From positions 2,948 to 66,947 of IMG/VR virus record IMGVR_UViG_3300021979_000001: DNA of 64,000 bases. One strand, written 5' to 3'. The position numbers and the translations under genes are program-made. This DNA is from a virus. Lineage: Duplodnaviria; Heunggongvirae; Uroviricota; Caudoviricetes. This document shows positions 1 to 15,772 of the stretch, piece after piece; position 1 is the stretch's first letter; the number at the start of each line of letters is the position of its first letter. The notes below the pieces were generated by a model. It worked only from the letters and a program-made list of their open reading frames with translations. It did not search any database and was not told the origin of the DNA.

Positions 1-27
1 ATAATATAAATTATAAATTGCAATCAT
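1..27 (-). CDS. Gly-X repeat peptide minigene, 5' end only
   Basis: An ATG at 27 follows the conserved 20-nt spacer. The leader reads MIAIYNLYY and the gene runs off the left edge. Confidence 0.4.
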
Positions 28-47
28 AATTGGTAACAGTTTGTTCG

Positions 48-308
48 TTAATTATAATAACCATCCCCTTCCCCAAAACCATAACCGTGCCCATCCCCAA
101 TACCAGTGCCAATACCAGTGCCAATACCAATATCAATAATAAAACCATGACCATGACCATGACCAAAACCATAACCATGACCATCACTATGACCATCACT
201 ATGCCCATTCCCATGCCCCGAATCATCCGAAAAACCATGACCAAACCCATATGTCTCGTTATTGGTTATTAATGGTATTGAATAATATAAATTATAAGTT
301 GCAACCAT
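48..308 (-). CDS. Gly-X repeat peptide minigene
   Basis: AAAGG SD-like box; leader MVATYNLYYSIPLITNNETYG; 86 aa; GxGx core; tail GDGYYN. Confidence 0.65.
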   Translation of the reverse strand: MVATYNLYYSIPLITNNETYGFGHGFSDDSGHGNGHSDGHSDGHGYGFGHGHGHGFIIDIGIGTGIGTGIGDGHGYGFGEGDGYYN

Positions 309-328
309 AATTGGTAACCTTTTGTTCG

Positions 329-547
329 TTAATTATAATAACCATCTTCATCTACATGACCAGACCCAAAACTAGAGCCAAGACCATATCCATGACCATA
401 ACCATCGCCAGGACCATCACCATTCCCCGAGCCATGACCAGACCCAAAACTAGAGCCATAATCATTACCAAAACCACGACCAAACCCATATGTCTCGTTA
501 TTGGTTATTAATGGTATTGAATAATATAAATTATAAGTTGCGACCAT
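329..547 (-). CDS. Gly-X repeat peptide minigene
   Basis: Uses the internal ATG of track ORF 329..763; leader MVATYNLYYSIPLITNNETYG; 72 aa; tail EDGYYN. Confidence 0.65.
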   Translation of the reverse strand: MVATYNLYYSIPLITNNETYGFGRGFGNDYGSSFGSGHGSGNGDGPGDGYGHGYGLGSSFGSGHVDEDGYYN

Positions 548-575
548 AATTGGTAACCTTTTGTCCTTTTGTCCT

Positions 576-809
576 TTAATCATAACCGTGTCCATAGCCA
601 TGACCATTTCCATTCCCAATCCCATTCCCACTCCCAAGCCCATACCCAAAACCATAACCATCGCTATCCCCATAGCCTTCGCCATAACCATTCCCATGAT
701 TTGAGCCATAACCAGAACCAGAACCAGACACCGTTCCACAATCATACCCATATGTCTCGTCATTGGTTATTAATGGCATCAAATAATATAAATTATATAT
801 TGTAACCAT
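576..809 (-). CDS. Gly-X repeat peptide minigene
   Basis: Leader MVTIYNLYYLMPLITNDETYG; 77 aa; tail GHGYD. Confidence 0.65.
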   Translation of the reverse strand: MVTIYNLYYLMPLITNDETYGYDCGTVSGSGSGYGSNHGNGYGEGYGDSDGYGFGYGLGSGNGIGNGNGHGYGHGYD

Positions 810-829
810 AACGGGTAACCTTTCTTTCT

Positions 830-1006
830 TTAACCATAGCCATCCCCATAATCAAACCCACGATCATACTCATGACACGACCTGGCCCGTCCCAAAACTA
901 GAGCCATATTCATTACCATGACCCGAACCATAACCATCATTAGGTGACGCATATTTAATATAATTTAATTTTATTTTATTTTATTTTATTTTATGTATAT
1001 ATTCAT
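830..1006 (-). pseudogene. Decayed Gly-X minigene (MNIYIK leader)
   Basis: ATG AAT ATA TAC ATA AAA TAA. An (ATTTT)5 expansion inside the leader creates the stop, and a frameshift follows before the GY tail. Confidence 0.5.
968..992. repeat. (ATTTT)5 microsatellite
   Basis: Five perfect pentamer units where intact paralogs have one. The extra 20 nt breaks the reading frame. Confidence 0.8.
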
Positions 1007-1087
1007 GATATGTTGTTCGAGTAAAACCAGAATCACTTATATTATAACTCAACTATTACATTATTGGGTAAAATCGTCTCCATCGAT

Positions 1088-1315
1088 TTAACCAAAACCA
1101 TGACCATAACCAAAACCATTTCCGTAACCGTCACCAACCCCATCACCATAACCATCCCCATAACCATAACCGTCACCATCTCCCTGACTATCCCCATAAC
1201 TATTGCCATAACCAAAACCATAACCTTCGCCATCACCATCGCCAGGACCATCACCATACTCGTCGTCATTGGTTATTAATGGTATCGAATAATATAAATT
1301 ATAAATTGTAACCAT
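1088..1315 (-). CDS. Gly-X repeat peptide minigene
   Basis: Leader MVTIYNLYYSIPLITNDDEYG; 75 aa. Confidence 0.65.
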   Translation of the reverse strand: MVTIYNLYYSIPLITNDDEYGDGPGDGDGEGYGFGYGNSYGDSQGDGDGYGYGDGYGDGVGDGYGNGFGYGHGFG

Positions 1316-1335
1316 AACTGGTAACCTTTTGTTCT

Positions 1336-1557
1336 TTAATAATAACCATCCTCTGATCCACCCCCAAGCCCATCTCCATCACTATCCCCATCCCCATACC
1401 CATAGCCATCTCCATCCCCATAACCATGACCATCGCCATCCCCATAACCATAACCATCCCCAGACCCATAACCCAACACCGTTCCACAATCATGCCCATG
1501 CGTCTCGTCATTGGTTATTAATGGTATCGACGAATATAAAATATAAATTATAACCAT
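1336..1557 (-). CDS. Gly-X repeat peptide minigene
   Basis: Uses Met4 of the track ORF; leader MVIIYILYSSIPLITNDETHG; 73 aa. Confidence 0.6.
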   Translation of the reverse strand: MVIIYILYSSIPLITNDETHGHDCGTVLGYGSGDGYGYGDGDGHGYGDGDGYGYGDGDSDGDGLGGGSEDGYY

Positions 1558-1577
1558 AACTGGCAATCGTTTATCCT

Positions 1578-1847
1578 TTAATCATAACCCGCGCCATTCC
1601 CATGACCATTACCAATACCATGCCCACCGCCATAGCCACCACGCCCATTCCCTAAACCATGCCCATCACTATCCCCATAGCCAAACCCATTCCCATAATA
1701 TGAGACATAACCAGAACCAAAACCATTTCCAGAACCAGAACCATCACCATTCCCAATACCATCACCATTCCCCAAGCCATCACTATCATCATCGCCATCA
1801 TTGTATGAACTGGAATTGATATAATTTAATTTTATGGATATATTCAT
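1578..1847 (-). CDS. Gly-X repeat peptide minigene
   Basis: Leader MNISIKLNYINSSSYNDGDDD; 89 aa; tail GAGYD. Confidence 0.65.
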   Translation of the reverse strand: MNISIKLNYINSSSYNDGDDDSDGLGNGDGIGNGDGSGSGNGFGSGYVSYYGNGFGYGDSDGHGLGNGRGGYGGGHGIGNGHGNGAGYD

Positions 1848-1878
1848 AATTCACGCACCTGGTGAAAAATAAGTTGAA

Positions 1879-2190
<312 letters not shown>

Positions 2191-2220
2191 TAGATGTCGC
2201 TCCGGTAAAAATAAGTTAAA

Positions 2221-2442
2221 TCATTTATAACCATAACCATAACCATCGCCAGAACCATCTCCATTCCTCTCCCCAGAACCATCACCATGACCATCACCAT
2301 AACCAATACCAGAACCATTCCCATAGCCATGACTATAACCAGTCCCATGCACCGAACCATCCGCAAAACCATGACCAAACCCATATGTCTCGTCATTGGT
2401 TATTAATGGTATCGAATAATATAAAATATAAATTGTAACCAT
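2221..2442 (-). CDS. Gly-X repeat peptide minigene
   Basis: Uses Met10 of the track ORF; leader MVTIYILYYSIPLITNDETYG; 73 aa. Confidence 0.65.
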   Translation of the reverse strand: MVTIYILYYSIPLITNDETYGFGHGFADGSVHGTGYSHGYGNGSGIGYGDGHGDGSGERNGDGSGDGYGYGYK

Positions 2443-2622
2443 AACTGATAATCTTTCTTTTTTAATCATAACAATCCCAGCCCCAAAACCATGACCGGAA
2501 CTATCATTATAAACAATACCGGAACCAGAATCATAATCATAATCATAATCACAACCAGAGCCATCATAGCGTGACCAGGATTTGATATAATTTAATTTTA
2601 TTTTATAGAGATAATCAGGATA
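2443..2622 (-). pseudogene. Decayed Gly-X minigene lacking a start codon
   Basis: The leader remnant LYKIKLNYIKSWSRYDG has no ATG, and the frame reads through into the next gene. Confidence 0.4.
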
Positions 2623-2675
2623 TGTTGCTCCGGTAAAAACTGAATAAATTATATTATAATTTAATTATTGCTTTA

Positions 2676-2903
2676 TTAGTAAAACTCCGATCCAGAACCA
2701 TGGCCCTTTCCATATTTCTTACCATATCCAGAACCAGAACCATAATCATACCCACACCCTTCACCATCGGCAGAACCATCGCGATTGCCATCCCCAGTGC
2801 CATACTCATTCCCATTGCCATGTCCATAGCTATATCCATATCCATGAACGGTGTCATGATCAGATATATTGATGTAAAATGACTGGGTTATGGATGATTT
2901 CAT
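2676..2903 (-). CDS. Gly-X repeat peptide minigene
   Basis: ATG after a TTTTACAGGTATGACC box; leader MKSSITQSFYINISDHDTVHG; 75 aa; tail GSGSEFY. Confidence 0.65.
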   Translation of the reverse strand: MKSSITQSFYINISDHDTVHGYGYSYGHGNGNEYGTGDGNRDGSADGEGCGYDYGSGSGYGKKYGKGHGSGSEFY

Positions 2904-2959
2904 GAATGGGTCATACCTGTAAAATGAATTATTCATAATGTAATCCAATTGTTGCATCA

Positions 2960-3163
2960 TTAGCTATGATCACGGCCATAACCATGCCCATCCCCATAAC
3001 CATCACCATCAACATGACCACTCGCATAGCCACGACCATAACCAGAATCAAGACCATCACCATAACCGAAATCACGACCAGAACCAGAACCATTCCCATA
3101 GCCATATGTCTCGTGATTGGTTATTAATGGTATCACATAATATAACTCATATATTGTAACCAT
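2960..3163 (-). CDS. Gly-X repeat peptide minigene
   Basis: Leader MVTIYELYYVIPLITNHETYG; 67 aa; tail GRDHS. Confidence 0.65.
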   Translation of the reverse strand: MVTIYELYYVIPLITNHETYGYGNGSGSGRDFGYGDGLDSGYGRGYASGHVDGDGYGDGHGYGRDHS

Positions 3164-3183
3164 AACGGATGATCTTTCTTTTT

Positions 3184-3381
3184 TTAATTATAGTCCGCGC
3201 CATTCTCATGACCATCACCGCAACCATCACCATAAATATGACCATAACCATGACCATAACCATATCCATGACCATCACCATGACCGAAACCACGACCAGA
3301 ACCAGAACCATTCCCATAGCCATATGTCTCGTGATTGGTTATTAATGGTATCACATAATATAACTCATATATTGTAACCAT
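3184..3381 (-). CDS. Gly-X repeat peptide minigene
   Basis: Leader MVTIYELYYVIPLITNHETYG. Three additional in-frame ATGs at 3393, 3405 and 3417 come from a 12-nt tandem repeat. Confidence 0.6.
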   Translation of the reverse strand: MVTIYELYYVIPLITNHETYGYGNGSGSGRGFGHGDGHGYGYGHGYGHIYGDGCGDGHENGADYN

Positions 3382-3420
3382 ACCTGTAACCATACCTGTA
3401 ACCATACCTGTAACCATACC
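3373..3420. repeat. 12-nt tandem repeat x4 (tgtaaccatacc), each unit carrying a start codon
   Basis: Four perfect units. On the minus strand they read ATGGTTACAGGT x3 followed by ATGGTTACAATA. Confidence 0.85.
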
Positions 3421-3437
3421 TGGTAACCTTTTGTTCG

Positions 3438-3641
3438 TTAATCATAACCCGCGCCATAGCCATGACCATTTCCATTCCCAAGCCCATTACCACTCCCAAG
3501 CCCTTTTCCAAAACAATAACCATCACTATCCCCATAGCCATCCCCATGACCATTCCCATGATTTGAACCATTCCCATAGCCATATGTCTCGTGATTGGTT
3601 ATTAATTGTATCGAATAATATAATTTATAAATTGTAACCAT
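3438..3641 (-). CDS. Gly-X repeat peptide minigene
   Basis: Leader MVTIYKLYYSIQLITNHETYG; 67 aa; tail GAGYD. Confidence 0.65.
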   Translation of the reverse strand: MVTIYKLYYSIQLITNHETYGYGNGSNHGNGHGDGYGDSDGYCFGKGLGSGNGLGNGNGHGYGAGYD

Positions 3642-3661
3642 AACTGGTAACCTTTTGTTTT

Positions 3662-3754
3662 TTAATCATAATCCGCGCCATGACCATTTCCATGGCCTGA
3701 ATTCTCATAGATTGCCCAGGATTTGATATAATTTAATTTTATGGATATATTCAT
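3662..3754 (-). CDS. Short Gly-X minigene (30 aa)
   Basis: Hand-translated as MNISIKLNYIKSWAIYENSGHGNGHGADYD. It falls below the ORF-track cutoff. Confidence 0.4.
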   Translation of the reverse strand: MNISIKLNYIKSWAIYENSGHGNGHGADYD

Positions 3755-3810
3755 AATTCACGCACCGGTAAAAACTGAATCACTTATATTATAATTCAAT
3801 TATTGATTGA

Positions 3811-4068
3811 TTAGTAAAACTCCGATCCAGAACCATGACCCTTTCCATATTTCTTACCATATCCAGAACCAAAACCATGTCCATAACCACAACCCTTGTC
3901 GGAACCGGAACCATTGCCATCATCGTATCCATCCCCAAAACCAGAACCAAAACCATCGCCATGACCATAACCATTTCCAGAACCATAACTGGAACCATAA
4001 CCAGAACCATCAAGTCCATTTCCTGGAAGATCGGATTTGTGATAATGTAACGTTATGGATATATTCAT
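3811..4068 (-). CDS. Gly-X repeat peptide minigene
   Basis: Uses Met20 of the track ORF; leader MNISITLHYHKSDLPGNG; 85 aa; tail GSGSEFY. Confidence 0.6.
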   Translation of the reverse strand: MNISITLHYHKSDLPGNGLDGSGYGSSYGSGNGYGHGDGFGSGFGDGYDDGNGSGSDKGCGYGHGFGSGYGKKYGKGHGSGSEFY

Positions 4069-4127
4069 GGTATGCCACCCCCGGTAAAACAAAGTATTCA
4101 TATTATAATTCACGTATTGCATCATTA

Positions 4128-4280
4128 TTAAAAACCATGACCCTTGTCAGAACTATAACCACAGCCATTATAATATATGCCATCACCATAATCAGAACCC
4201 CTTCCCATTCCCGAACCATAATTAGAATCATGTTCGGTCAGATCAGGATTTAGTTGACTTAATTTTATGGATGTATTCAT
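4128..4280 (-). CDS. Gly-X repeat peptide minigene
   Basis: Uses Met17 of the track ORF; leader MNTSIKLSQLNPDLTEHD; 50 aa. Confidence 0.5.
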   Translation of the reverse strand: MNTSIKLSQLNPDLTEHDSNYGSGMGRGSDYGDGIYYNGCGYSSDKGHGF

Positions 4281-4336
4281 AATTATTATCACACCAGATA
4301 AAAAATAAATCACTATACTATAATTCAATTATTACA

Positions 4337-4564
4337 TCATTTGCTATGGCTCGAACCATGACCATCCCCATCCCCATACCCAGCACCAGCACCAGCACCA
4401 TCGTCATGACCACTACCATTGCCATAACCATCACCATCCCCAGAACCATAACCAAAACCATAACCATTACCATAATGATAAGCAGAACTATAAGCAGAAC
4501 CATCACCATAAACATTATAGGTTTGATCAGGTTCTTGGAAATAGGTTTCAATTGATGTATTCAT
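4337..4564 (-). CDS. Gly-X repeat peptide minigene
   Basis: Leader MNTSIETYFQEPDQTYNVYG; 75 aa; tail GSSHSK. Confidence 0.65.
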   Translation of the reverse strand: MNTSIETYFQEPDQTYNVYGDGSAYSSAYHYGNGYGFGYGSGDGDGYGNGSGHDDGAGAGAGYGDGDGHGSSHSK

Positions 4565-4606
4565 AAGTAGCACACCAGGTAAAAACGAATTATTTATATT
4601 ATAGCA

Positions 4607-4882
4607 TCATTTGCTATGGCTCGCACCATTACCAAAACCATAACATGCTCCATGACCACTACCATGACCACGACCATTGCCATAACCATGACCATTGCCA
4701 TAACCATAACCATGACCATAACCATCCCCACAACCAGAGCCATCCCTAGACCCATCCCCGTCGTCATCCCCATCCCCATCGCTATAACCCTCCCCATCGC
4801 CAGGACCAGAGCCATGACCAAAACCATAAATATTATCGGGTTGATCAGGTTCTTGGAAATAGGTTTCAATCGATGTATTCAT
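4607..4882 (-). CDS. Gly-X repeat peptide minigene
   Basis: Leader MNTSIETYFQEPDQPDNIYG; 91 aa; tail GASHSK. Confidence 0.65.
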   Translation of the reverse strand: MNTSIETYFQEPDQPDNIYGFGHGSGPGDGEGYSDGDGDDDGDGSRDGSGCGDGYGHGYGYGNGHGYGNGRGHGSGHGACYGFGNGASHSK

Positions 4883-4924
4883 AAGTAGCACACCAGGTAA
4901 AAACGAATTATTTATATTATAGCA

Positions 4925-5182
4925 TCATTTGCTATGGCTCGCACCATTACCATCACCATCCCCATCACCATTCCCTCTACCATACTCAATACCAAAACCA
5001 GTCCCAAAACCATGACCATTGCCATAACCATCACCATAACCATCCCCATTACCAGCCCCATCACCATAACCATAACCATAACCATAACCCTCCCCATCGC
5101 CATGACCAGAACCATGTCCATAACCATAAATATTATCGGGTTGATCAGGTTCTTGGAAATATGTTTCAATTGATGTATTCAT
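4925..5182 (-). CDS. Gly-X repeat peptide minigene
   Basis: Leader MNTSIETYFQEPDQPDNIYG; 85 aa; tail GASHSK. Confidence 0.65.
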   Translation of the reverse strand: MNTSIETYFQEPDQPDNIYGYGHGSGHGDGEGYGYGYGYGDGAGNGDGYGDGYGNGHGFGTGFGIEYGRGNGDGDGDGNGASHSK

Positions 5183-5234
5183 AGTAGCACACCAGGTAAA
5201 AATGAATTATTTGTATTATAATTCAAGTATTGCA

Positions 5235-5519
5235 TCATTTTCTAATACCACGATTGCTGCCATATCTTCTGCCATATCCAAACGTATTACTAACCCTAAA
5301 CCCATTACCATTGCCATAACCATCACCAAAACCATGACCATAACCATCTCCCTCCCCATCCCCATCGCCAGAACCATCGGCAGAACCATCGCGATTGCCA
5401 TCCCCATAGCCATCCCCAGAACCATCCCCAGAACCATCCCCAGAACCATCACCATACATAAAATCATCGTTCGTTAGATGGGAATTAACGCAATAATACA
5501 ATTCAATCGAAATATTCAT
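5235..5519 (-). CDS. Gly-X repeat peptide minigene
   Basis: Leader MNISIELYYCVNSHLTNDDFMYG; 94 aa. Confidence 0.65.
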   Translation of the reverse strand: MNISIELYYCVNSHLTNDDFMYGDGSGDGSGDGSGDGYGDGNRDGSADGSGDGDGEGDGYGHGFGDGYGNGNGFRVSNTFGYGRRYGSNRGIRK

Positions 5520-5622
5520 AATTAGCACACCGAGTAAAAATAAGTTAAATCATTTCCAACCACTACCACGACCATGACTAGTAGCCAGAGTTAGAGTCAA
5601 ATCCATATCCATATCCATATCA

Positions 5623-5844
5623 CTATCCATCCCCATCCCCAAACCCATGCGCGGAACCATCCCTATAATCATACCCATAATCATACCCATAATCATACCC
5701 ATACCCAAAACCATACCCATACCCCTCACCATCGGCAGAACCATCGCGATTGCCATCCCCAGAGCCATAGTCATAGTCGTATCCATGATAGGTTTCAGGA
5801 ACATATATATTGATGTAAAACGACTGGTTTATGTATGGTTTCAT
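5623..5844 (-). CDS. Gly-X repeat peptide minigene (truncated relative to paralogs)
   Basis: Leader MKPYINQSFYINIYVPETYHG; 73 aa. TAG TGA is followed by more GY-coding sequence at 5550-5622. Confidence 0.6.
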   Translation of the reverse strand: MKPYINQSFYINIYVPETYHGYDYDYGSGDGNRDGSADGEGYGYGFGYGYDYGYDYGYDYRDGSAHGFGDGDG

Positions 5845-5898
5845 TAATAGGTTACACCTGTAAAAAATAAATCACTATACTATAATTAATTTATTGCA

Positions 5899-6147
5899 TC
5901 ATTTGTTATGGCTCTCACCATTACCAAATCCATAACATGTTCCATTCCCACTACCACGACCACGACCATTGCTATAACCATTACCATTGCCATAGCCATC
6001 ACCAAAACCATGACCATAATCATCTCCCTCCCCATCCCCATCGCCAGAACCATCCCCATCGCCAGGACCAGAGTCATGACCATACATAAAATCATCGTTC
6101 GTTAGATGGGAATTAACACAATAATACAATTCAATCGAAGTATTCAT
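5899..6147 (-). CDS. Gly-X repeat peptide minigene
   Basis: Leader MNTSIELYYCVNSHLTNDDFMYG; 82 aa; tail GESHNK. Confidence 0.65.
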   Translation of the reverse strand: MNTSIELYYCVNSHLTNDDFMYGHDSGPGDGDGSGDGDGEGDDYGHGFGDGYGNGNGYSNGRGRGSGNGTCYGFGNGESHNK

Positions 6148-6177
6148 AATTCGCACACCGGGTAAAAATAAGTTAAA

Positions 6178-6417
6178 TTATCCACACCCATGACCACGAC
6201 CATGACTAGAGCCAGAGTCAGAGCCAAATCCAGAGCCATAGCTATGTCCAACACCAAATCCAAAACCAAACCCACCATGATAGTCAGAACCAGACCCATC
6301 CCCGGAACCATCCCCATCCCCATAACCATGACCATTCCCAGAGCCATATTCGTATCCATGATAGGTTTCAGGAGCATATATATTGATGTAAAATGACTGG
6401 TTTATGTATGGTTTCAT
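6178..6417 (-). CDS. Gly-X repeat peptide minigene
   Basis: Leader MKPYINQSFYINIYAPETYHG; 79 aa; tail GRGHGCG. Confidence 0.65.
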   Translation of the reverse strand: MKPYINQSFYINIYAPETYHGYEYGSGNGHGYGDGDGSGDGSGSDYHGGFGFGFGVGHSYGSGFGSDSGSSHGRGHGCG

Positions 6418-6471
6418 TAATAGGTCACATCTGTAAAAAATAAATCACTATACTATAATTCAATTATTGCA

Positions 6472-6780
6472 TCATTTGCTAATACCACGATTGCTGCCAT
6501 ATCCAAAACCTGCTCCATTACCACTACCATGACCACGGCCATTATCATAACCACGGCCATTACCATAACCATGACCAGAACCAATCCCATTACCATCTCC
6601 ATTGCCACCACCATAACCATGCGCAGAACCATCACCATAATCATACCCATACCCCGAACCATCGGCAGAACCATCGCGATTGCCATCCCCAGAGCCATCC
6701 CCAGAACCATCACCATACATAAAATCATCGTTCGTTAGATGGGAATTAACGCAATAATACGGTTCAATCGAAGTATTCAT
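6472..6780 (-). CDS. Gly-X repeat peptide minigene
   Basis: Leader MNTSIEPYYCVNSHLTNDDFMYG; 102 aa. Confidence 0.65.
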   Translation of the reverse strand: MNTSIEPYYCVNSHLTNDDFMYGDGSGDGSGDGNRDGSADGSGYGYDYGDGSAHGYGGGNGDGNGIGSGHGYGNGRGYDNGRGHGSGNGAGFGYGSNRGISK

Positions 6781-6810
6781 AATTAGCATACCGGGTAAAA
6801 ATAAGTTAAA

Positions 6811-7074
6811 TTATTCACACCCATGACCACGACCATAACCATAACCATAACTATCCTCAAACCCATTCCCATTCCCAAGCCCTCTCCCAAAACCATGACC
6901 TTCACCATTCCCCGAACCATACCCATTCCCAGAACCATCGCCATCGCCACCACTATGACCATCACCAGACCCATCCCCATAACCATGACCATCCCCAGAG
7001 CCATAGTCGTATCCATGATAGGTTTCAGGAATATATATATTGATGTAAAACGATTGGTTTATGTATGGTTTCAT
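6811..7074 (-). CDS. Gly-X repeat peptide minigene
   Basis: Leader MKPYINQSFYINIYIPETYHG; 87 aa; tail GRGHGCE. Confidence 0.65.
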   Translation of the reverse strand: MKPYINQSFYINIYIPETYHGYDYGSGDGHGYGDGSGDGHSGGDGDGSGNGYGSGNGEGHGFGRGLGNGNGFEDSYGYGYGRGHGCE

Positions 7075-7127
7075 TAATAGGTTACACCTGTAAAAAATAA
7101 ATCACTTACTATAATTAATTTATTGCA

Positions 7128-7382
7128 TCATTTGTTATGGCTCGCACCATTACCAAATCCATAACATGCTCCATTACCACTACCACGACCACGACCATTG
7201 CTATAACCATCACCATCACCATCGCCATCACCAAACCCATGACCATAACCATCCCCAGAGCCATCCCCATCGCCAAAACCATCACCATACCCGTCATCAT
7301 CACCATAACCATGACCTGATGTATAATAGATTTCATGATCAGATGGATTGATACCAAAATACTGACTTATGTATGGTTTCAT
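7128..7382 (-). CDS. Gly-X repeat peptide minigene
   Basis: Leader MKPYISQYFGINPSDHEIYYTSG; 84 aa; tail GASHNK. Confidence 0.65.
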   Translation of the reverse strand: MKPYISQYFGINPSDHEIYYTSGHGYGDDDGYGDGFGDGDGSGDGYGHGFGDGDGDGDGYSNGRGRGSGNGACYGFGNGASHNK

Positions 7383-7436
7383 TAATAGGTCACACATGTA
7401 AAAAATAAATCACTATACTATAATTCATTTATTGCA

Positions 7437-7691
7437 TCATTTGTTATGGCTCTCACCATTACCAAATCCATAACATGCTCCATTACCACTACCATGACTA
7501 CCACCAGAAACATAACCATAACCATGACCATAACCATCCCCACAACCAGAGCCATCCCTATCCCCATCCCCAAAACCATACCCATAACCATCACCATACC
7601 CGTCATCATCACCATAACCATGACCTGATGTATAATAGATTTCATGATCAGATGGATTGATACCAAAATACTGACTTATGTATGGTTTCAT
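7437..7691 (-). CDS. Gly-X repeat peptide minigene
   Basis: Leader MKPYISQYFGINPSDHEIYYTSG; 84 aa; tail GESHNK. Confidence 0.65.
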   Translation of the reverse strand: MKPYISQYFGINPSDHEIYYTSGHGYGDDDGYGDGYGYGFGDGDRDGSGCGDGYGHGYGYVSGGSHGSGNGACYGFGNGESHNK

Positions 7692-7763
7692 TAATAGGTC
7701 ACTCATGTAAAAAATAAATCACTCATAATATTATTCAATTGTTGCGTTATTAATGAAAAATCA

Positions 7764-7883
7764 TCAATGACCCTTTCTATCCGCATCACCATAACCATTG
7801 CCATAGTTTGAGTCAAAACCAGAAACATTTTCAGATATATCATGATCATGGTAGTGGTAATACAATTCAATCGATATGTTCAT
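7764..7883 (-). CDS. Short Gly-X minigene (39 aa)
   Basis: Hand-translated as MNISIELYYHYHDHDISENVSGFDSNYGNGYGDADRKGH. Confidence 0.4.
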   Translation of the reverse strand: MNISIELYYHYHDHDISENVSGFDSNYGNGYGDADRKGH

Positions 7884-7943
7884 AATAGGCCACTGCCAAT
7901 AATATAATAAAATAAACCATTACTATTTCAATTGGTGGAACCA

Positions 7944-8144
7944 CTAACCTTCGCGACCATGACCTCTGCCTCGGCCCCTTCCAGTTTCATAACCAGGCCC
8001 ATCCCCGGAGCCAAGACCATACTCAAATCCAAGCCAGTTACCATCACCATCGCCATAACCATTGCCCTGCTCGCCACCACTCACGAAATCCACGTTCGTT
8101 AGATGGGAATTAACGCAATAATACAATTCAATTGATGTATTCAT
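7944..8144 (-). CDS. Gly-X repeat peptide minigene
   Basis: Leader MNTSIELYYCVNSHLTNVDFVSG; 66 aa. Confidence 0.6.
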   Translation of the reverse strand: MNTSIELYYCVNSHLTNVDFVSGGEQGNGYGDGDGNWLGFEYGLGSGDGPGYETGRGRGRGHGREG

Positions 8145-8201
8145 AATTAACACACCAGGTAAAAAACAAAGTATTCATCTTATAATTCAATTATTGCCTC
8201 A

Positions 8202-8459
8202 TTAACCATACCCGGAGCCATTTACATACCCATCCCCATATCCCTCGCCAATCCCAAATCCACCCCCCGCACCATCCCCTTCCAAATAGCCGTTTCCATA
8301 ACCGTAACCATAGCCATCGTCATACCTAATAATACCTGAACCATTACCAGAACCATCACCATAACCAGCCTCATAACCATACGTAAAACCGAAACCGGAA
8401 TCATAATCATATTTGTGACAATCTGTTTCGTGATAATTTAATTTTATAGATGAACTCAT
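8202..8459 (-). CDS. Gly-X repeat peptide minigene
   Basis: Uses Met7 of the track ORF; leader MSSSIKLNYHETDCHKYDYDSG; 85 aa. Confidence 0.6.
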   Translation of the reverse strand: MSSSIKLNYHETDCHKYDYDSGFGFTYGYEAGYGDGSGNGSGIIRYDDGYGYGYGNGYLEGDGAGGGFGIGEGYGDGYVNGSGYG

Positions 8460-8520
8460 GATAGGACATACATGCAAAAATAAACCATTACTAATTCAAT
8501 TGTTGTGCTATTAACTACGA

Positions 8521-8763
8521 TCATGCACCCCCCTGACTATATCCATCGCCATACCCATAACCAAAAACTTTACCATCATTATCCCCATACCCATTACCAT
8601 AGCCAGAGCCATCCGCATCATCATCATCATCATTGGTAATATACCAAGCATTATTAATATTATATCCCGAACCATGACCATAACCAAAACCATCCCCTTC
8701 TATATAACCAGTTTTATTATTTTCAGATTCGATATAAAAAGATTGTTTTATCGATACTGGCAT
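8521..8763 (-). CDS. Gly-X repeat peptide minigene
   Basis: Uses Met6 of the track ORF; leader MPVSIKQSFYIESENNKTG; 80 aa. Confidence 0.55.
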   Translation of the reverse strand: MPVSIKQSFYIESENNKTGYIEGDGFGYGHGSGYNINNAWYITNDDDDDADGSGYGNGYGDNDGKVFGYGYGDGYSQGGA

Positions 8764-8813
8764 GCTAAATCCCATCAAGTAATAAAAAAGGTGTTACGTA
8801 ACTACGATTATAT

Positions 8814-8918
8814 TTAAAACACTGCGCCATCGCCATTACCATGACCATCACCGAGTGCATAATCGGGTTTATGATAATCTGTATTAATGTAAAACAACTG
8901 GTTTATGTATATGGTCAT
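8814..8918 (-). CDS. Short Gly-X minigene (34 aa)
   Basis: Hand-translated as MTIYINQLFYINTDYHKPDYALGDGHGNGDGAVF. Confidence 0.4.
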   Translation of the reverse strand: MTIYINQLFYINTDYHKPDYALGDGHGNGDGAVF

Positions 8919-8957
8919 GAATAGGCCACACCTGTGAAAATCAAACCACTAATATTA

Positions 8958-9248
8958 TTATGCACTTAAACCTTCCCCATAAATATTGCTATAACTATTG
9001 CCATTCCAGTTACCGGAACCATCGCCATAACCATCCCCATAACTATTGCAATTCCTGTTACCGTGACCATCTCCCTCACCATAACCATAACCATTCCCAA
9101 AATCATCTCCATCACTCTCCCCAGAGTCATCCCCATAACCGGAACAATAACCATTCACATATCCATAACCAAGACCATGACCATGACCATGATCGGTTTC
9201 ATGATCATCTGCATGTATGCAAAAATACTGATTTATGTATGGGGTCAT
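8958..9248 (-). CDS. Gly-X repeat peptide minigene
   Basis: Leader MTPYINQYFCIHADDHETDHG; 96 aa. Confidence 0.65.
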   Translation of the reverse strand: MTPYINQYFCIHADDHETDHGHGHGLGYGYVNGYCSGYGDDSGESDGDDFGNGYGYGEGDGHGNRNCNSYGDGYGDGSGNWNGNSYSNIYGEGLSA

Positions 9249-9299
9249 AATTGGTCACACCTATAAAAATAAACACTAAACGTTTTTTTGATGGTATCA

Positions 9300-9575
9300 T
9301 TAGTTATAATTACAGCCATCACTATCTCCATAACCAAAACCATAACCAAAACCATCACCATCACCATAACCATAACCATGACTAACACCAGAGCCAGAGC
9401 CATCCCCATCCCCATCTCCCTGCCCATCGCCATCGCCATCGCCCTGTCCATTACCATAACCATGACCAAAACCATTCCCATTCCCATAACCATGACCCGA
9501 GCCATTACCATGACCGGAACCGGTTTCATGATCATCTGCATGTATGCAAAAATACTGATTTATGGGTAGATTCAT
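9300..9575 (-). CDS. Gly-X repeat peptide minigene
   Basis: GGTG box; leader MNLPINQYFCIHADDHETGSG; 91 aa; tail DGCNYN. Confidence 0.65.
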   Translation of the reverse strand: MNLPINQYFCIHADDHETGSGHGNGSGHGYGNGNGFGHGYGNGQGDGDGDGQGDGDGDGSGSGVSHGYGYGDGDGFGYGFGYGDSDGCNYN

Positions 9576-9627
9576 GATCGGTCACACCTGTAAAAATAAA
9601 CACTAAACTTTTTTTTGATGGGTATCA

Positions 9628-9882
9628 TTAGTTATAATTACAGCCATCACCATCTCCATAACCAAAACCATCACCATAACCACCGCCATGACTAACGCCA
9701 GAGCCAGAGCCATCACCATCTTCATAACCAAAACCATAACCAAAACCATCACCATAACTATAACCATGATCCCCATCACCAAAACCATTCCCATAACCAT
9801 GACCCGAGCCATTACCATGACCGGAACCGGTTTCATGATCATCTGCATGTATGCAAAAATACTGATTTATGGGTAGATTCAT
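9628..9882 (-). CDS. Gly-X repeat peptide minigene
   Basis: Leader identical to 9300..9575; 84 aa; tail DGCNYN. Confidence 0.65.
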   Translation of the reverse strand: MNLPINQYFCIHADDHETGSGHGNGSGHGYGNGFGDGDHGYSYGDGFGYGFGYEDGDGSGSGVSHGGGYGDGFGYGDGDGCNYN

Positions 9883-9937
9883 GATCGGTCACGCCTGTAA
9901 AACGAATTATTAATATTGTAATTCAAGTGTTGCATCA

Positions 9938-10153
9938 TTAGTTATAATTACAGCCATAGCCAGCACCATTGCCATTGCCATTGCCATTGCCGTAACCGTC
10001 GCCAGCCCCATCGCCATGACTAACACCAGAGCCAGAGCCATCACCATCCCCATCTCCCTGCCCATCGCCATCACCCGAGCCATTACCATGACCGGAACCG
10101 GTTTCATGATCATCTGCATGTATGCAAAAATACTGATTTATGGGTAGATTCAT
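9938..10153 (-). CDS. Gly-X repeat peptide minigene
   Basis: Leader identical to 9300..9575; 71 aa; tail YGCNYN. Confidence 0.65.
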   Translation of the reverse strand: MNLPINQYFCIHADDHETGSGHGNGSGDGDGQGDGDGDGSGSGVSHGDGAGDGYGNGNGNGNGAGYGCNYN

Positions 10154-10202
10154 GATCGGTCACACCTGTAAAAATAAACCACTAAAATTTTTATTTACTG
10201 TA

Positions 10203-10457
10203 TCATTGGTTATGATCGCGACCATCCCCTTCCCCAAAACCATCCCCATCTCCATTCCCCAAGCCATTGCTTCGACCATAACCATCACCATGACCAGAAC
10301 CAGCATTAATCCCATAACCAGACCCACACCCGGAGCCATAACCCTCCCCGTAACCATAGCCATACGCATTACCATGACCATGACCATAACCGAAACCATA
10401 CTCGGTTTTATGATAATTTGTATTAATGCAAAACATTTGGTTTATATATGTGGTCAT
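10203..10457 (-). CDS. Gly-X repeat peptide minigene
   Basis: Uses Met20 of the track ORF; leader MTTYINQMFCINTNYHKTEYG; 84 aa; tail GRDHNQ. Confidence 0.6.
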   Translation of the reverse strand: MTTYINQMFCINTNYHKTEYGFGYGHGHGNAYGYGYGEGYGSGCGSGYGINAGSGHGDGYGRSNGLGNGDGDGFGEGDGRDHNQ

Positions 10458-10513
10458 GAATAGGTCACGCCTGTAAAACGAATTATTAATATTATAATTC
10501 AAGTGTTGCATCA

Positions 10514-10771
10514 TTAGTTATAATTACAGCCATAGCCAGCACCATTGCCATTGCCATTGCCGTAACCGTCGCCATCCCCATAGCCATTGCCAAAACCATA
10601 ACCATCCCCATAATCATACCCATAACCGGAGCCACTGCCAAATCCATAACCATCCCCATCATTATCCCCATAACCGGAGCCATTACCATGACCATACTCA
10701 TTATCATGACCATACGTGTTTTCATGATAATATGTATTGATGTAAAATGACTGGGTTATGGGTGGGTTCAT
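10514..10771 (-). CDS. Gly-X repeat peptide minigene
   Basis: Leader MNPPITQSFYINTYYHENTYG; 85 aa; tail YGCNYN. Confidence 0.65.
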   Translation of the reverse strand: MNPPITQSFYINTYYHENTYGHDNEYGHGNGSGYGDNDGDGYGFGSGSGYGYDYGDGYGFGNGYGDGDGYGNGNGNGAGYGCNYN

Positions 10772-10819
10772 GATCGGTCACGCCTGTAGAAATAAACCAC
10801 TAAATTTTTATTGACTGTA

Positions 10820-11086
10820 TCATTGGCTATGATCGCGACCATTCCCATAACCATTCCCAGAGCCATAATTATTTCCATTCCCAGAGCAAGAGCCATACCC
10901 AGAGCCATAATTATTCCCGTAACCATTACCATGCCCCGTAGCATAACCGAAACCATCGCTCGAACCATCTCCAAAACCATCCCCAGTGCCATACTCATTC
11001 CCATTGCCATGTCCATAGCCATATCCATGAACGGTGTCATGATCAGATGTATTGATGTAAAATGACTGGGTTATGGATGATTTCAT
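10820..11086 (-). CDS. Gly-X repeat peptide minigene
   Basis: Uses Met20 of the track ORF; leader MKSSITQSFYINTSDHDTVHG; 88 aa; tail GRDHSQ. Confidence 0.6.
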   Translation of the reverse strand: MKSSITQSFYINTSDHDTVHGYGYGHGNGNEYGTGDGFGDGSSDGFGYATGHGNGYGNNYGSGYGSCSGNGNNYGSGNGYGNGRDHSQ

Positions 11087-11142
11087 GAATGGGTCACACC
11101 TGTAAAATGAATTATTCATAATGTAATCCAATTGTTGCATCA

Positions 11143-11388
11143 TTAGCTATGATCACGGCCATAACCATGACCACTCTCATAGCCATAACCATCAACATGA
11201 CCACTCGCATAGCCACGACCATAACCAGAATCAAGACCATCACCATGACCATAACCACGACCAGAGCCAAGACCAGAGCCACGACCAGAGCCAAGACCAG
11301 AGCCAAGACCATAACCATTACCATGACCGGAACCGGTTTTATGTGTATCGGCATTGATGTAAAACGACTGGTCTATAGATTGATTCAT
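11143..11388 (-). CDS. Gly-X repeat peptide minigene
   Basis: Leader MNQSIDQSFYINADTHKTGSG; 81 aa; tail GRDHS. Confidence 0.65.
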   Translation of the reverse strand: MNQSIDQSFYINADTHKTGSGHGNGYGLGSGLGSGRGSGLGSGRGYGHGDGLDSGYGRGYASGHVDGYGYESGHGYGRDHS

Positions 11389-11446
11389 GAAACGGTCTTA
11401 CCTGTAAAAATGAAATCACTTATATTGTAATTCAATTGTTGCATTA

Positions 11447-11698
11447 TTAGCTATTATCATGACCATTCCCATTGCCATAACCATCCCCCGCACTATCCCC
11501 ATAGCTGCCGCCATAACCATAACCACGACCATTACCATAACCATAGCCGCCGCCATAACCATAACCATGATCGGTGCCAACACCATAACCAGAACCATAG
11601 CCATGCTCATTGCCATGACCATAATCAACGCCGGGTCCATTATCGATTTCATGATCATGTGTGTTGATGTAAAACGACTGGTGTATGGATTGGTTCAT
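11447..11698 (-). CDS. Gly-X repeat peptide minigene
   Basis: Leader MNQSIHQSFYINTHDHEIDNG; 83 aa; tail GHDNS. Confidence 0.65.
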   Translation of the reverse strand: MNQSIHQSFYINTHDHEIDNGPGVDYGHGNEHGYGSGYGVGTDHGYGYGGGYGYGNGRGYGYGGSYGDSAGDGYGNGNGHDNS

Positions 11699-11756
11699 GA
11701 AACGGTCTTACCTGTAAAAATGAAATCACTTATATTGTAATTCAATTGTTGCATTA

Positions 11757-12026
11757 TTAGCTATTATCATGACCATTCCCATTCCCATTCCCATTGCCAT
11801 CCCCATCCCCCGCCCCCGCACTATCCCCATAGCCGCCGCCATAACCATAACAATGCGCGTCCCCAAATCCAGAGCCAAGACCATAACCATAACCATGATT
11901 GGTGCCAACACCATAACCAGAACCATAGCCATGCTCATTGCCATGACCATAATCAACGCCGGGTCCATTATCGATTTCATGATCATGTGTGTTGATGTAA
12001 AACGACTGGTGTATGGATTGGTTCAT
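11757..12026 (-). CDS. Gly-X repeat peptide minigene
   Basis: About 150 nt of 5'UTR, leader and early core are identical to 11447..11698; 89 aa. Confidence 0.65.
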   Translation of the reverse strand: MNQSIHQSFYINTHDHEIDNGPGVDYGHGNEHGYGSGYGVGTNHGYGYGLGSGFGDAHCYGYGGGYGDSAGAGDGDGNGNGNGNGHDNS

Positions 12027-12084
12027 GAAACGGTCTTACCTGTAAAAACGAAACCACTTATGTCGTAATTCAATTGTTGCATTA

Positions 12085-12204
12085 TTAGCTATTATCATGA
12101 CCATTCCCATTGCCATGCCCATTACAATAACCAAAACAATATTCATTGTCATTTTGGTTTAGATTAGTATTGATGTAAAAAATGTTGGATTATGGTGTGT
12201 TCAC
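12085..12204 (-). pseudogene. Decayed Gly-X minigene
   Basis: GTG replaces the ATG and there is an in-frame TAA at codon 5 (GTG AAC ACA CCA TAA). The remainder reads SNIFYINTNLNQ...GHGNGNGHDNS. Confidence 0.5.
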
Positions 12205-12270
12205 AGTAATTCGTTCAATCATGTATAAAATAACTAAATTATGCCTATTATAACTTAAATTGTTGCATCA

Positions 12271-12513
12271 TTAACCATACCCCGATCCATTACTATGATC
12301 TGTCAGATAACCATCACCATCACCAAACGCGGAACCATCACCACTTCCATCGCCATGGCCGTAACCATGACCACGTGCAGACCCAAACCGATCACCTAGA
12401 CTATACTTTTTATCATCATTATACTCATTGCCAGCACCATAACCAAAACCATAACCAGAAAACTTTTCGGATTGATCATATTGGGTATAATTTAATTTTA
12501 TGGATGTATTCAT
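12271..12513 (-). CDS. Gly-X repeat peptide minigene
   Basis: Leader MNTSIKLNYTQYDQSEKFSG; 80 aa. Confidence 0.6.
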   Translation of the reverse strand: MNTSIKLNYTQYDQSEKFSGYGFGYGAGNEYNDDKKYSLGDRFGSARGHGYGHGDGSGDGSAFGDGDGYLTDHSNGSGYG

Positions 12514-12616
12514 GATATGTTCTAGTAAATAATGAACGAAAAAATTAATTTACATTTCAATGTCAGTATTATCCATCACCATCACATATTCATGACCTGG
12601 CCTGTTTGTTGTATCA

Positions 12617-12907
12617 TTAATTATGATCACTGCCATTCCCATTACCATAACCAAAACCATGACCATTCCCAAGCCCTCTCCCAAAACCATGACCTTCACC
12701 ATTCCCCGAACCATACCCATTCCCAATACCATCGCCATCGCCATCACTATGACCATCACCAGACCCATCGCCAAAACCATAACCATTACTATCGCCATAA
12801 CCCAAAACGCCCCTAATACCACCACCATGCTTAGATGTTAATCTTTTGTAATATACATGTTTGGAAAGATCAGATGTATGGTAATTTAATTTTATGGATA
12901 GTTTCAT
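12617..12907 (-). CDS. Gly-X repeat peptide minigene
   Basis: Leader MKLSIKLNYHTSDLSKH; 96 aa; tail GSDHN. Confidence 0.6.
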   Translation of the reverse strand: MKLSIKLNYHTSDLSKHVYYKRLTSKHGGGIRGVLGYGDSNGYGFGDGSGDGHSDGDGDGIGNGYGSGNGEGHGFGRGLGNGHGFGYGNGNGSDHN

Positions 12908-12969
12908 GATAGGACCATCCCTGGTAATAAAAAATCACTAATATTTCAATTGGCAGTATCAATTAATCA

Positions 12970-13185
12970 TTAACTACAGTCATGCCCTGGACTCTCACCA
13001 TAACCATAACCATTCCCAACACCATTGCCATCCCCATCACCATAACCAGAACCGAAACCGTCCCCCTCATTATAACCATTCCCATTACCAGAACCGAAAC
13101 CATCGCCATTAGCAAAAATAGAACCATAAAGATTTCTCTTTAGGTCCGCATTGTATAAATAAAACAAATTAATTGGTGTATTCAT
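12970..13185 (-). CDS. Gly-X repeat peptide minigene
   Basis: Leader MNTPINLFYLYNADLKRN; 71 aa. Confidence 0.6.
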   Translation of the reverse strand: MNTPINLFYLYNADLKRNLYGSIFANGDGFGSGNGNGYNEGDGFGSGYGDGDGNGVGNGYGYGESPGHDCS

Positions 13186-13243
13186 GATCTGCTTCCTAGG
13201 TAATAAAATTGCTCATTCATGTTATACTTCAATTAATGCATCA

Positions 13244-13465
13244 TTAGTCAAAAAAACTAACGGAACCATTCCCATAGCCATAACTAGAACCATTGTCCAA
13301 ACCCTCGTTATAATCTTTTCCAGAACTATAACCATTTCCATAATCATAACCAAACCCGGCCCCATAGCCAAAACACCTGTAACTGGTATCTGCACCGGAA
13401 CCGAAACCAGAATCATTTATGGATAGATCAGACTCTTGATGATTTAATTTTACGAATATAGTCAT
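13244..13465 (-). CDS. Gly-X repeat peptide minigene
   Basis: Leader MTIFVKLNHQESDLSINDSG; 73 aa. Confidence 0.55.
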   Translation of the reverse strand: MTIFVKLNHQESDLSINDSGFGSGADTSYRCFGYGAGFGYDYGNGYSSGKDYNEGLDNGSSYGYGNGSVSFFD

Positions 13466-13517
13466 TATATGCCATATAAGGTAATAAGTTTAATAAATCA
13501 TATTATAATTGGTTGCA

Positions 13518-13745
13518 TCAATCACCATGACCCTTACCATCTCCAAAACCATACCCGAAACTATAACCAAACACCGAACCAATACCCTCGCCAACACCAA
13601 TACGGAAATCATTACCATCCCCATTCCCATAACCAAAACCATAACTTTCCCCAGTATAATAACCCGAACTCGGTTCATTACCCAACCACCCATCGGGTGT
13701 TAGGTCGGTGTTATAACAATAATACATTTTTATTGGCGTATTCAT
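13518..13745 (-). CDS. Gly-X repeat peptide minigene
   Basis: Uses Met8 of the track ORF; leader MNTPIKMYYCYNTDLTPDG; 75 aa. Confidence 0.55.
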   Translation of the reverse strand: MNTPIKMYYCYNTDLTPDGWLGNEPSSGYYTGESYGFGYGNGDGNDFRIGVGEGIGSVFGYSFGYGFGDGKGHGD

Positions 13746-13812
13746 AATTATTTTACCGAGTGACAAAAATAAGTTAACTAAATTGCATTACAACTTAGTG
13801 GTATCATTAATA

Positions 13813-14043
13813 TTACGTATCCCCATAATCATAACCAAATCCAGAACCCTTACCATAACCATTTCCCTGCTCGCCACCATACCCCGCACCAACCCCAGAA
13901 CCGTAACTATCTCCATTATTATAACCAGCACTGGCCCCCATCCCATAACTCAAACCATTACCAAAACCCAAACCAGACCCATCCCAGGAGACATCTTTTT
14001 TTAGATAGGGTTCGTGATAACACCAGTCGATAGCGGTATTCAT
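13813..14043 (-). CDS. Gly-X repeat peptide minigene
   Basis: Uses Met4 of the track ORF; leader MNTAIDWCYHEPYLKKD; 76 aa. Confidence 0.55.
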   Translation of the reverse strand: MNTAIDWCYHEPYLKKDVSWDGSGLGFGNGLSYGMGASAGYNNGDSYGSGVGAGYGGEQGNGYGKGSGFGYDYGDT

Positions 14044-14091
14044 AATTATCATCTCGGTAAAAAATGAAAGTTCAAATCACATATATTTCAA

Positions 14092-14287
14092 TTATTCGGA
14101 ATTACACCCCAGAGTGCCATACCTAAACCCAAAACCAAAACCATATTCATTCTCACCACCATATCCCTGACCGGAACACGAGCCATAACTATGACCATGA
14201 CTATGACCGGAACTATCGGTATGATCCGGTTCATCACCTGTTTCATTAGTGTGGTCATCGACAAAACAATAACATGTTTATATTCAT
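14092..14287 (-). pseudogene. Frameshifted Gly-X minigene
   Basis: ATG AAT ATA AAC, then a 1-nt shift before CYCFVDDHTNETGDEPD...GY core. The length of 196 nt is not a multiple of 3. Confidence 0.45.
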
Positions 14288-14313
14288 GTTATAATAAGAG
14301 CCATTTGAATAAT

Positions 14314-15770: not shown

Positions 15771-15772
15771 AA

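Follow-up and report, generated by a model that had tools for sequence, protein, structure and literature searches.

What is the box that recurs in front of the minigenes in a long tandem array of a huge phage, and does it serve the expression of these genes or is it intergenic DNA that was copied along with them? The window analysed here is a stretch of 64,000 nucleotides from a Caudoviricetes virus (positions 2,948 to 66,947 of IMG/VR record IMGVR_UViG_3300021979_000001), which is part of a 341,452-bp metagenomic scaffold (ERZ23499121 scaffold_2), the minus strand of the window being the plus strand of the scaffold. On the minus strand, positions 1..18591 hold about 55 minigenes (60-110 aa) in tandem, each with a conserved leader-like N-terminal segment (for example MNTSIELYYCVNSHLTNDDF, MKPYINQSFYINIY, MNLPINQYFCIHADDHET or MVTIYNLYYSIPLITNDETYG) followed by a (Gly-X)n core, in which X is mainly Y, D, H, N or S. 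A short contig carries the array 2.4 kb past window position 1, with 8 extra minigenes, and on the scaffold, about 2.8 kb of which lie past window position 1, the array spans from about 320 kb to the scaffold end. In total there are more than 60 minigenes over at least 21 kb at the end of the 341-kb phage scaffold. About half of them are preceded by a box of two modules, which we propose, with a probability of roughly 45% for the whole model, to be a ribosome-binding site joined to an array-specific promoter or operator.

A two-module spacer box in front of the minigenes

Between the array genes, spacers of three or four types recur. The longest type (52-59 nt, about 55 bases) contains both modules and stands in front of about half of the minigenes. 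Its 5' module, read from the upstream stop codon, is (TAA/TGA)TGATGCAAyAA-TTGAAwTAyAATAT, while its 3' module consists of rTGATTTA, 4-6 T, AC, 2-3 bases, a GGTG-like block, N7-11 and the ATG. Both modules were found for 27 of the 52 genes with assigned starts, two of these having an 11-nt deletion that leaves TGCTATAAT. The 3' module alone precedes about 12 of the 52, in 30-nt spacers (e.g. 6781-6810) and in spacers of the TGATACAG... type at 9.2-10.8 kb; about 8 genes (the MVTIYNLYY group) have a 20-nt spacer, and the five most upstream and most divergent array genes are without any of these types. Spacers with only the 3' module (6781-6810, 6148-6177, 5520-5552 and the TGATACAG... type) retain the T-run and GGTG, and this T-run plus GGTG module stands before nearly every gene not having the 20-nt spacer. 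From 5.2 to 7.1 kb the order is strictly alternating, with three rounds of full box, MKPY gene, short spacer and MNTS gene.

A sequence-only reading of the window had described a recurrent promoter-like box with a ribosome-binding-like block before individual minigenes, and this box is real: a covariance model of the whole box, which uses sequence only, gave 37 matches at the significance level of E<0.05, every one on the array coding strand. The plus-strand 28-mer reported for it, GTAAAAAATAAATCACTATACTATAATT, occurs without mismatch at 5860, 6433 and 7398 and with a single one at 4298 (0 expected), and the copies that had been placed near 7090 and 7710 turned out to be indel or substitution variants. 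The literal consensus (A/T)ATTATA(G/A)TATA(G/A)TGAT does not hold as a general motif, fitting four copies only, because the other copies differ by an indel. A generalising consensus, ATTGAAWTAYAATAT, had 26 matches with at most 2 mismatches (5.7 expected), of which 23 lie on the array minus strand, and TTTTTACMSGTG had 15 with at most 1 mismatch (1.7 expected), all on the minus strand from 2200 to 12048. The variants reported near 2634, 3766, 4581, 4896 and 5196 are all true boxes.

The ATTGAA anchor of the box lies 41-57 nt upstream of the ATG, mostly 45-49 nt. At its upstream end the box starts at TAA/TGA-TGATGCAA behind C-terminal tails as dissimilar as SHNK, DHS, CNYN, GYG, GHGF and SEFY; the tails are therefore not part of the box, and of the overlap between conserved tails and box that had been suggested, only the stop codon is left.

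We suggest that the long spacer accompanies the minigene units as an expression cassette of two parts. Of these, the 3' module would be a translation-initiation region made of a U-rich tract and a Shine-Dalgarno-like element, needed before the genes without the 20-nt spacer. The 5' module would be an array-specific regulatory element acting at the DNA level, most likely a "-10 only" promoter, from which transcripts would probably start at the purine about 7 nt downstream of TAyAAT. In this way internal transcription starts may occur every one to four genes along a terminator-free array of more than 21 kb. We infer that RNA polymerase would initiate at the box, that a polymerase or sigma factor would recognise it and that a protein would contact TTGAAw.

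As a regulatory feature, a repeated promoter-like and ribosome-binding-like spacer in a tandem array is ordinary. The box is useful nevertheless in defining the true minigene starts, as public gene calls sometimes take it in as a 19-residue N-terminal extension, and in marking off likely transcription units, each of one to four genes, within the array. Besides, it offers a precise target of 25 nt for mapping transcripts or testing reporters. Should the box be a real promoter, there would be about 30 internal starts and a very high, possibly timed output of unexplained glycine-rich peptides.

Confinement of the box to the array

To see where the box occurs, we scanned the sequence with a 16-nt position weight matrix (PWM) at a cut-off of at least 12 bits. 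It had 27 matches on the array minus strand, none on the array plus strand and 4 in the 45 kb of non-array sequence, mostly within genes; at a lax threshold, the non-array sequence gave 24 matches versus a shuffle expectation of 28. The covariance model had no significant match in about 55 kb of flanking phage DNA (18.7-64 kb of the window and 10 kb beyond its right end), where its best match (E=0.17) lies inside a coding region. Nor was the box enriched at 46 related huge-phage loci, found via a radical SAM gene of this phage (28 matches versus 42 expected). Within the sequence read (74 kb examined), the box is confined to the array.

Two likenesses of the box were seen by eye on the plus strand, in intergenic DNA outside the array. 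One, TAAATGATAAATAAATGAAATATATTGGATTATTTATAC at 47766-47805, stands before a 564-aa ORF and was not listed by the covariance model at E<=10; the other, TTTGAAATACAGTAT...TATAGTATGGATATTTTATTACC at 54737-54805, stands before the gene 54818-55234 and had E=2.2. We also considered whether the box was derived from leader coding sequence, because ATTGAATTGTATTAT (encoding IELYY) scores 13.8 bits, and rejected this origin, a single independent match being insignificant.

Constraint on the 5' module

An alternative is that the box is a passenger: functionless intergenic DNA copied with the units by tandem duplication or unequal crossing-over, whose copies are similar by recency or gene conversion. 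Tandem Repeats Finder did report whole-unit repeats of 300 and 309 nt with 80-89% identity, several boxes are mutually identical, and one box persists beside a decayed gene (2620-2675); like the confinement to the array, all of this suits a passenger. Against it, in 165 unit pairs whose leaders are below 34% in amino-acid identity, identity is 0.77 for the 14-nt core of the 5' module, whereas leader third codon positions (0.46) and the 12 nt beside the ATG (0.36) are at or near the chance level of 0.30-0.37. The anchoring used in this test inflates the box identity somewhat, and an unanchored MAFFT alignment gave the same ranking, with the mean information of the box columns at least as high as that of any leader codon position. 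The most divergent units, at 12.5-16.3 kb, still have the ATTGAAwTA core, the box keeps strictly to one strand and position, and gene conversion of only about 25 nt, sparing the adjacent 12 nt and the leader, would be an unlikely event.

Since the 5' module is 77% identical where the leaders are near-random, neutral duplication is therefore quite improbable as the explanation, and we regard the 5' module as very likely a selected regulatory element of some kind. Confinement together with pure duplication had been named beforehand as telling against a promoter; the box is indeed confined, and pure duplication does not account for a box that is conserved where the neighbouring sequence is randomised. 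Other assemblies with the array are 100% identical to the window, save 2 mismatches in a 3.7-kb ENA contig (L181), and therefore hold no usable polymorphism data.

The 3' module as a candidate ribosome-binding site

For the 22 nt upstream of the array starts, we calculated the duplex with the anti-Shine-Dalgarno sequence, for which a generic 16S 3' tail was taken. The mean energy is -5.5 kcal/mol, compared with -3.1 for shuffles and -4.1 for the non-array genes, and 69% of the array starts reach -4 kcal/mol or better, versus 30% of shuffles. GGTG stands 7-11 nt from the ATG, a rather long spacing. About 35% of the upstream regions have an exact GGTG, the others having GGTA, GGCG, GATG, TGTG or GAGTG, so the "GGTG box" of the sequence-only reading is credible as a Shine-Dalgarno-like block by its pairing, while the name is too narrow. 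In our judgement the 3' module is probably the translation-initiation region, or ribosome-binding site, of each gene.

The class with the 20-nt spacer has AAGG and no box, and the earlier proposal that this tightly spaced MV.IYNLYY subfamily would be polycistronic is reasonable. Its spacer CGAACAAAAGGTTACCAATT occurs in six copies (0.01 expected); the exact copy at 309-328 lies outside the range for which the spacer had been reported, and the copies inside that range, at 3418-3437 and 3642-3661, are 2-3 bases off.

The 5' module as a candidate promoter

In about 19 of 25 boxes a TAyAAT hexamer is found 31-36 nt ahead of the ATG, in a common register or shifted by 2 nt. Scored with an approximate sigma-70 -10 matrix, the best hexamer (TATAAT, TATAGT, TACAAT or TACATT, with T1 and A2 near-invariant) follows immediately after ATTGAAT in 15 of the 25 and 2 nt further in 4 more. 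About 7 nt downstream stands a purine, and the resulting leader of about 30 nt would hold the U-run and the Shine-Dalgarno-like block. The two 11-nt deletion variants (4883-4924 and 4565-4606) keep TATAAT and gain TGn, giving TGCTATAAT, a perfect extended -10.

Internal transcription starts are plausible in an array of more than 21 kb without terminators. Terminator-like sites in it are at chance (9 versus 9.9 expected) and the box T-run has no preceding hairpin, while the non-array intergenic regions of this phage have textbook terminators of a GC-hairpin and T-run. The 5' module would most plausibly be a promoter.

Several findings weigh against the two-part model. There is no -35 element: AGCAAA, AACAAA or AGCTAA stands 16-18 bp upstream of the hexamer, a 2/6 match to TTGACA, and a sigma-70 two-hexamer scan of the array was unenriched (96 versus 89 expected). 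Extended -10 elements (TGnTATAAT) exist only in the two deletion variants, TG elsewhere lying three bases before the hexamer, and hexamer position 6, which sigma-70 needs, is weakly conserved (TATAAG, TATAAC, TACGAC). The boxes at 14043, 12907, 12026, 8459 and 7883 keep ATTGAAwTA and have no good in-register -10; the strongest constraint therefore lies beside the hexamer and not on it. The box is also palindrome-like around ATTATAAT, so that TATAAT is readable on the opposite strand too. It is absent from the flanking DNA and the 46 related loci and, being confined to the array, is not attributable to a genome-wide promoter class. As for the 3' module, no more than about a third of the copies have an exact GGTG, and other genes of the phage use Shine-Dalgarno sequences of the AGGA/GGAG type. 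The identification of TATAGT or TATAAT as a -10 box, as first proposed, is consistent with the fixed register and is weakened by the missing -35, the unenriched scan and the five boxes without a decent -10.

Conservation in the box peaks at TTGAAw and not at the TAyAAT hexamer, which suggests another way of reading the same bases. The ATTGAAwTA core could be an operator at which a DNA-binding regulator of phage or host turns the array on or off, or TTGAAw could be a -35 with yATTTT at the start of the T-run as its -10, which would place GGTG at the 5' end of the transcript and not in a ribosome-binding site. TTGAAA or TTGAAT does match TTGACA at 4-5 of 6 positions, the copy at 7884-7943 scores 10/12 with TTGAAA-16-TATTAT, and a Ros/MucR-family regulator is encoded at 56888-57343. 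However, the spacing from TTGAAw to the -10-like hexamer is inconsistent (11-19 nt), so that the register fits some copies only, half of the candidate hexamers are without the essential A at position 2, the Shine-Dalgarno complementarity puts the GGTG region inside the mRNA, and no regulator is linked to the motif. We consider this operator or -35 reading doubtful.

The 5' module might instead act as RNA within a long polycistronic transcript, as an AU-rich processing site of the RNase E type, a 5' end that stabilises the mRNA, a translational enhancer bound by S1 or a coupling relay. The box is AU-rich, is on the transcribed strand and lies directly between a stop codon and the next ribosome-binding site, with no terminators between the genes. 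Many box copies open with ATGATGCAA at the upstream stop; ATG(ATG)CAA-TAA is found there, and many copies begin with TAATGATG, where stop and start overlap, ahead of a mini-ORF of 3 codons. But there is no conserved secondary structure, the ATG at the box start is absent in several copies (3754, 7691, 8459), the frame of the mini-ORF is unconserved, with a varying T-run length and CAA-CAA alternating with CAA-TAA, and the genes with the 3' module alone or the 20-nt spacer apparently do without the 5' module. A role of this kind is unlikely. A conserved upstream ORF was rejected as well: changes of the T-run length break the frame, CAA alternates with TAA and some copies are without ATG.

Other identities of the box were tried and dropped. 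It is not a terminator or structured RNA: besides the terminator-like sites being at chance, RNAalifold predicted 0 base pairs for 11 aligned boxes and Rfam had nothing above threshold for the box. A Bacteroidota-type -33/-7 promoter was rejected as there is no TAnnTTTG and other phage genes have AGGA-type Shine-Dalgarno motifs, and a plus-strand T7-like promoter was rejected as TCACTATA is present only in the TATAGTATAGTGAT variants.

Returning to the promoter, a more far-reaching form of the idea is that ATTGAAwTAyAATAT is a dedicated promoter or operator class for a phage-encoded factor, with the sole role of driving or timing an orphan 21-kb array of more than 60 peptide genes. We think this far from probable; if true, box and array would be one new self-contained expression system of the 341-kb phage. 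No RNA polymerase subunit was found in Pfam scans of 30 window ORFs or in the Pfam labels of the genes on contig L295.

On the plus strand at 30-58 and 311-339, TTGGTA-17-TATAAT can be read across the 20-nt spacer and the DGYYN tail, matching the sigma-70 consensus at 10/12 positions, and antisense transcription may start from these sites.

Comparison with known systems

Like sigma-70 "-10 only" or extended -10 promoters with a Shine-Dalgarno leader, the box combines a TATAAT-like hexamer at 31-36 nt before the ATG, in which T1 and A2 are conserved, with a purine about 7 nt past the hexamer and a leader of about 30 nt that holds a U-rich tract and an SD-like block; two copies contain TGCTATAAT. 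It differs in the missing -35, in a TG that is two bases too far upstream in most copies, in a weakly conserved position 6 and in being conserved most strongly at the flanking TTGAAw, to which nothing in the sigma-70 consensus corresponds.

The virion RNA polymerase of AR9, a phiKZ-like jumbo phage, uses the early promoter AAATATATATTAT-N6-G(+1) (PMC5312081). The box resembles the virion-polymerase early promoters of phiKZ-like phages in being a long (13-16 nt) conserved AT-rich element without a -35, present in many copies in a very large genome, and in having a conserved purine about 6 nt downstream. The sequences differ, and the AR9/phiKZ motif is spread across dozens of unrelated early genes, whereas within the 74 kb examined the box is found only in one paralogous array.

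In the SPO1 host-takeover module and the T4 early regions, small unrelated early genes have many closely spaced canonical host sigma promoters and strong ribosome-binding sites. The array is similar to these clusters in its very small genes of the same orientation near the genome or scaffold end, with a promoter-like element every one to few genes, and differs in that its genes are all paralogues and the box misfits the full host consensus. Integron cassette arrays likewise are long same-strand runs of short ORFs with a recurrent 50-60-nt element between them. Their attC sites fold into hairpins from imperfect inverted repeats, and the cassettes carry unrelated genes, in contrast to the box, which is without predicted pairing, and to the tandem paralogues of the array.

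Positions of the spacers along the array

Reading down the minus strand, a full box of both modules at 8145..8201 (covariance model, 52.5 bits) precedes the gene 7944-8144, and a short variant (ATTGAAATAGTAATGG...) at 7884..7943, the one with the 10/12 sigma-70 match, precedes the gene 7764-7883. At 7692..7763 there is a full box variant (ATTGAATAATATTATG; 56.2 bits) before the gene 7437-7691. The exact 28-mer is contained in the full boxes at 7383..7436 (gene 7128-7382), 6418..6471 (gene 6178-6417) and 5845..5898 (gene 5623-5844), and a full box that is 1 nt shorter lies at 7075..7127 (gene 6811-7074); all four are matches of the covariance model. Among them are 30-nt spacers with the 3' module only, at 6781..6810 (TTTAACTTATTTTTACCCGGTATG; gene 6472-6780) and 6148..6177 (gene 5899-6147), and the 3' module is also alone at 5520..5552 (TGATTTAACTTATTTTTACTCGGTG; gene 5235-5519). 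Gene 5623-5844 ends sooner than its paralogues do, and a gap of 103 nt is left.

The next six are again found by the covariance model. A full box (CTTGAATTATAATACA) at 5183..5234 precedes the gene 4925-5182; the same 11-nt deletion of AATAATTGAAT, which leaves TGCTATAAT (extended -10 consensus), marks the boxes at 4883..4924 (gene 4607-4882) and 4565..4606 (gene 4337-4564); and full boxes follow at 4281..4336 (28-mer with 1 mismatch; gene 4128-4280), at 4069..4127 (in frame with the gene 3811-4068, which ORF finders extend to 4125) and at 3755..3810 (best PWM score, 21.2 bits; 30-aa gene 3662-3754). Class C spacers of 20 nt then stand at 3642..3661 (AAAACAAAAGGTTACCAGTT; gene 3438-3641), 3418..3437 (CGAACAAAAGGTTACCAGGT; gene 3184-3417) and 3164..3183 (AAAAAGAAAGATCATCCGTT, divergent; gene 2960-3163). 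Last come two full boxes matched by the covariance model, one at 2904..2959, in frame with the gene 2676-2903 and included in a public gene call that makes a 94-aa protein, and one at 2620..2675 (42.6 bits) before a decayed minigene, the start codon of which reads CTG. In this decayed unit (2560-2675, minus strand), the expected ATGAATATATCC reads CTGATTATCTCT behind the intact box and is followed by an early TAA.

Four units have the box in frame with the downstream gene (2904-2960, 4069-4125, 10458-10514 and 11087-11143, minus strand), with ATGATG at the upstream stop codon. Their ORF calls are 94-107 aa long with a 19-residue N-terminal extension, MMQQLDYIMNNSFYR..., and at least one is in public protein sets (the 94-aa P0001). 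The extension is probably an annotation artefact, and translational coupling may occur at these four boxes.

A 12-nt unit, GGTATGGTTACA, is repeated 4.6 times with 97% identity at 3373-3428 (minus strand), spanning the start of the gene 3184-3417. It duplicates the start codon and first codons, so that the protein begins MVTG-MVTG-MVTG-MVTIYELYY.

The array and its genomic setting

The array is the striking object here and is more unusual than the box that serves it. The leader of a minigene is 20-25 aa long, and the (Gly-X)n core is hypervariable and rich in Tyr, Asp, His and Asn. This layout resembles that of precursor families of ribosomally synthesised and post-translationally modified peptides (RiPPs), and no dedicated maturase was identified.

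We searched for relatives of the array and box in several ways. Megablast against the INPHARED phages gave no match, and three box DNA patterns (two run against IMG/VR, one against a metagenome collection) had only single scattered chance matches. Leader-profile protein-pattern scans gave no confirmed relative, and a word-indexed protein search found nothing. By hmmsearch against 1.84 billion representative proteins, the leader was found only in one protein, which is from this same genome, and the remaining 77 matches align to the Gly-rich part only. The array is without relatives in IMG/VR, in the metagenome contigs searched and in the 1.84 billion representative proteins.

Two radical SAM genes are near the array, at 21579-22667 (-) of the window and at 6377-7852 (-) of contig L295. 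The closer one, 3 kb from the array, has 46 homologues, 32-57% identical, in huge phages that reach 518 kb. No Gly-rich minigene array was found within 10 kb of the homologue at any of these 46 loci, and for this reason the gene was dropped as a marker of the array system; it is probably unrelated to the array.

The non-array genes of the window are of phage type, encoding a ribonucleotide reductase with an intein, a DnaB-like helicase, a radical SAM enzyme, an ion channel, an EcoRV-like nuclease and an amidoligase; the window lacks tRNA genes. The large subunit of the ribonucleotide reductase (43934-47092, +) is interrupted by the intein and called as 2 ORFs with a 144-nt gap (45674-45817). 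Encoded at 27034-27771 (+) is a restriction endonuclease that resembles EcoRV, and at 27743-28828 (-) a protein that resembles K+ channels and has an RCK domain; the regulator at 56888-57343 (+) is a Ros/MucR-family zinc-finger protein.

The region 29700-29800 has ATCGTGCTATTGTTTTTAT and its complement as a perfect inverted repeat of 19 bp around a short loop, which looks like a bidirectional intrinsic terminator, and similar GC-hairpin terminators are at 19170-19210, 26905-26935, 31235-31265, 37575-37610 and 38745-38780. A coding 18-nt tandem repeat, GATGTATCTGACAAGGAA, is present in at least 4 copies inside a gene at about 1900-2000 of contig L295, about 71.8 kb beyond the right end of the window.

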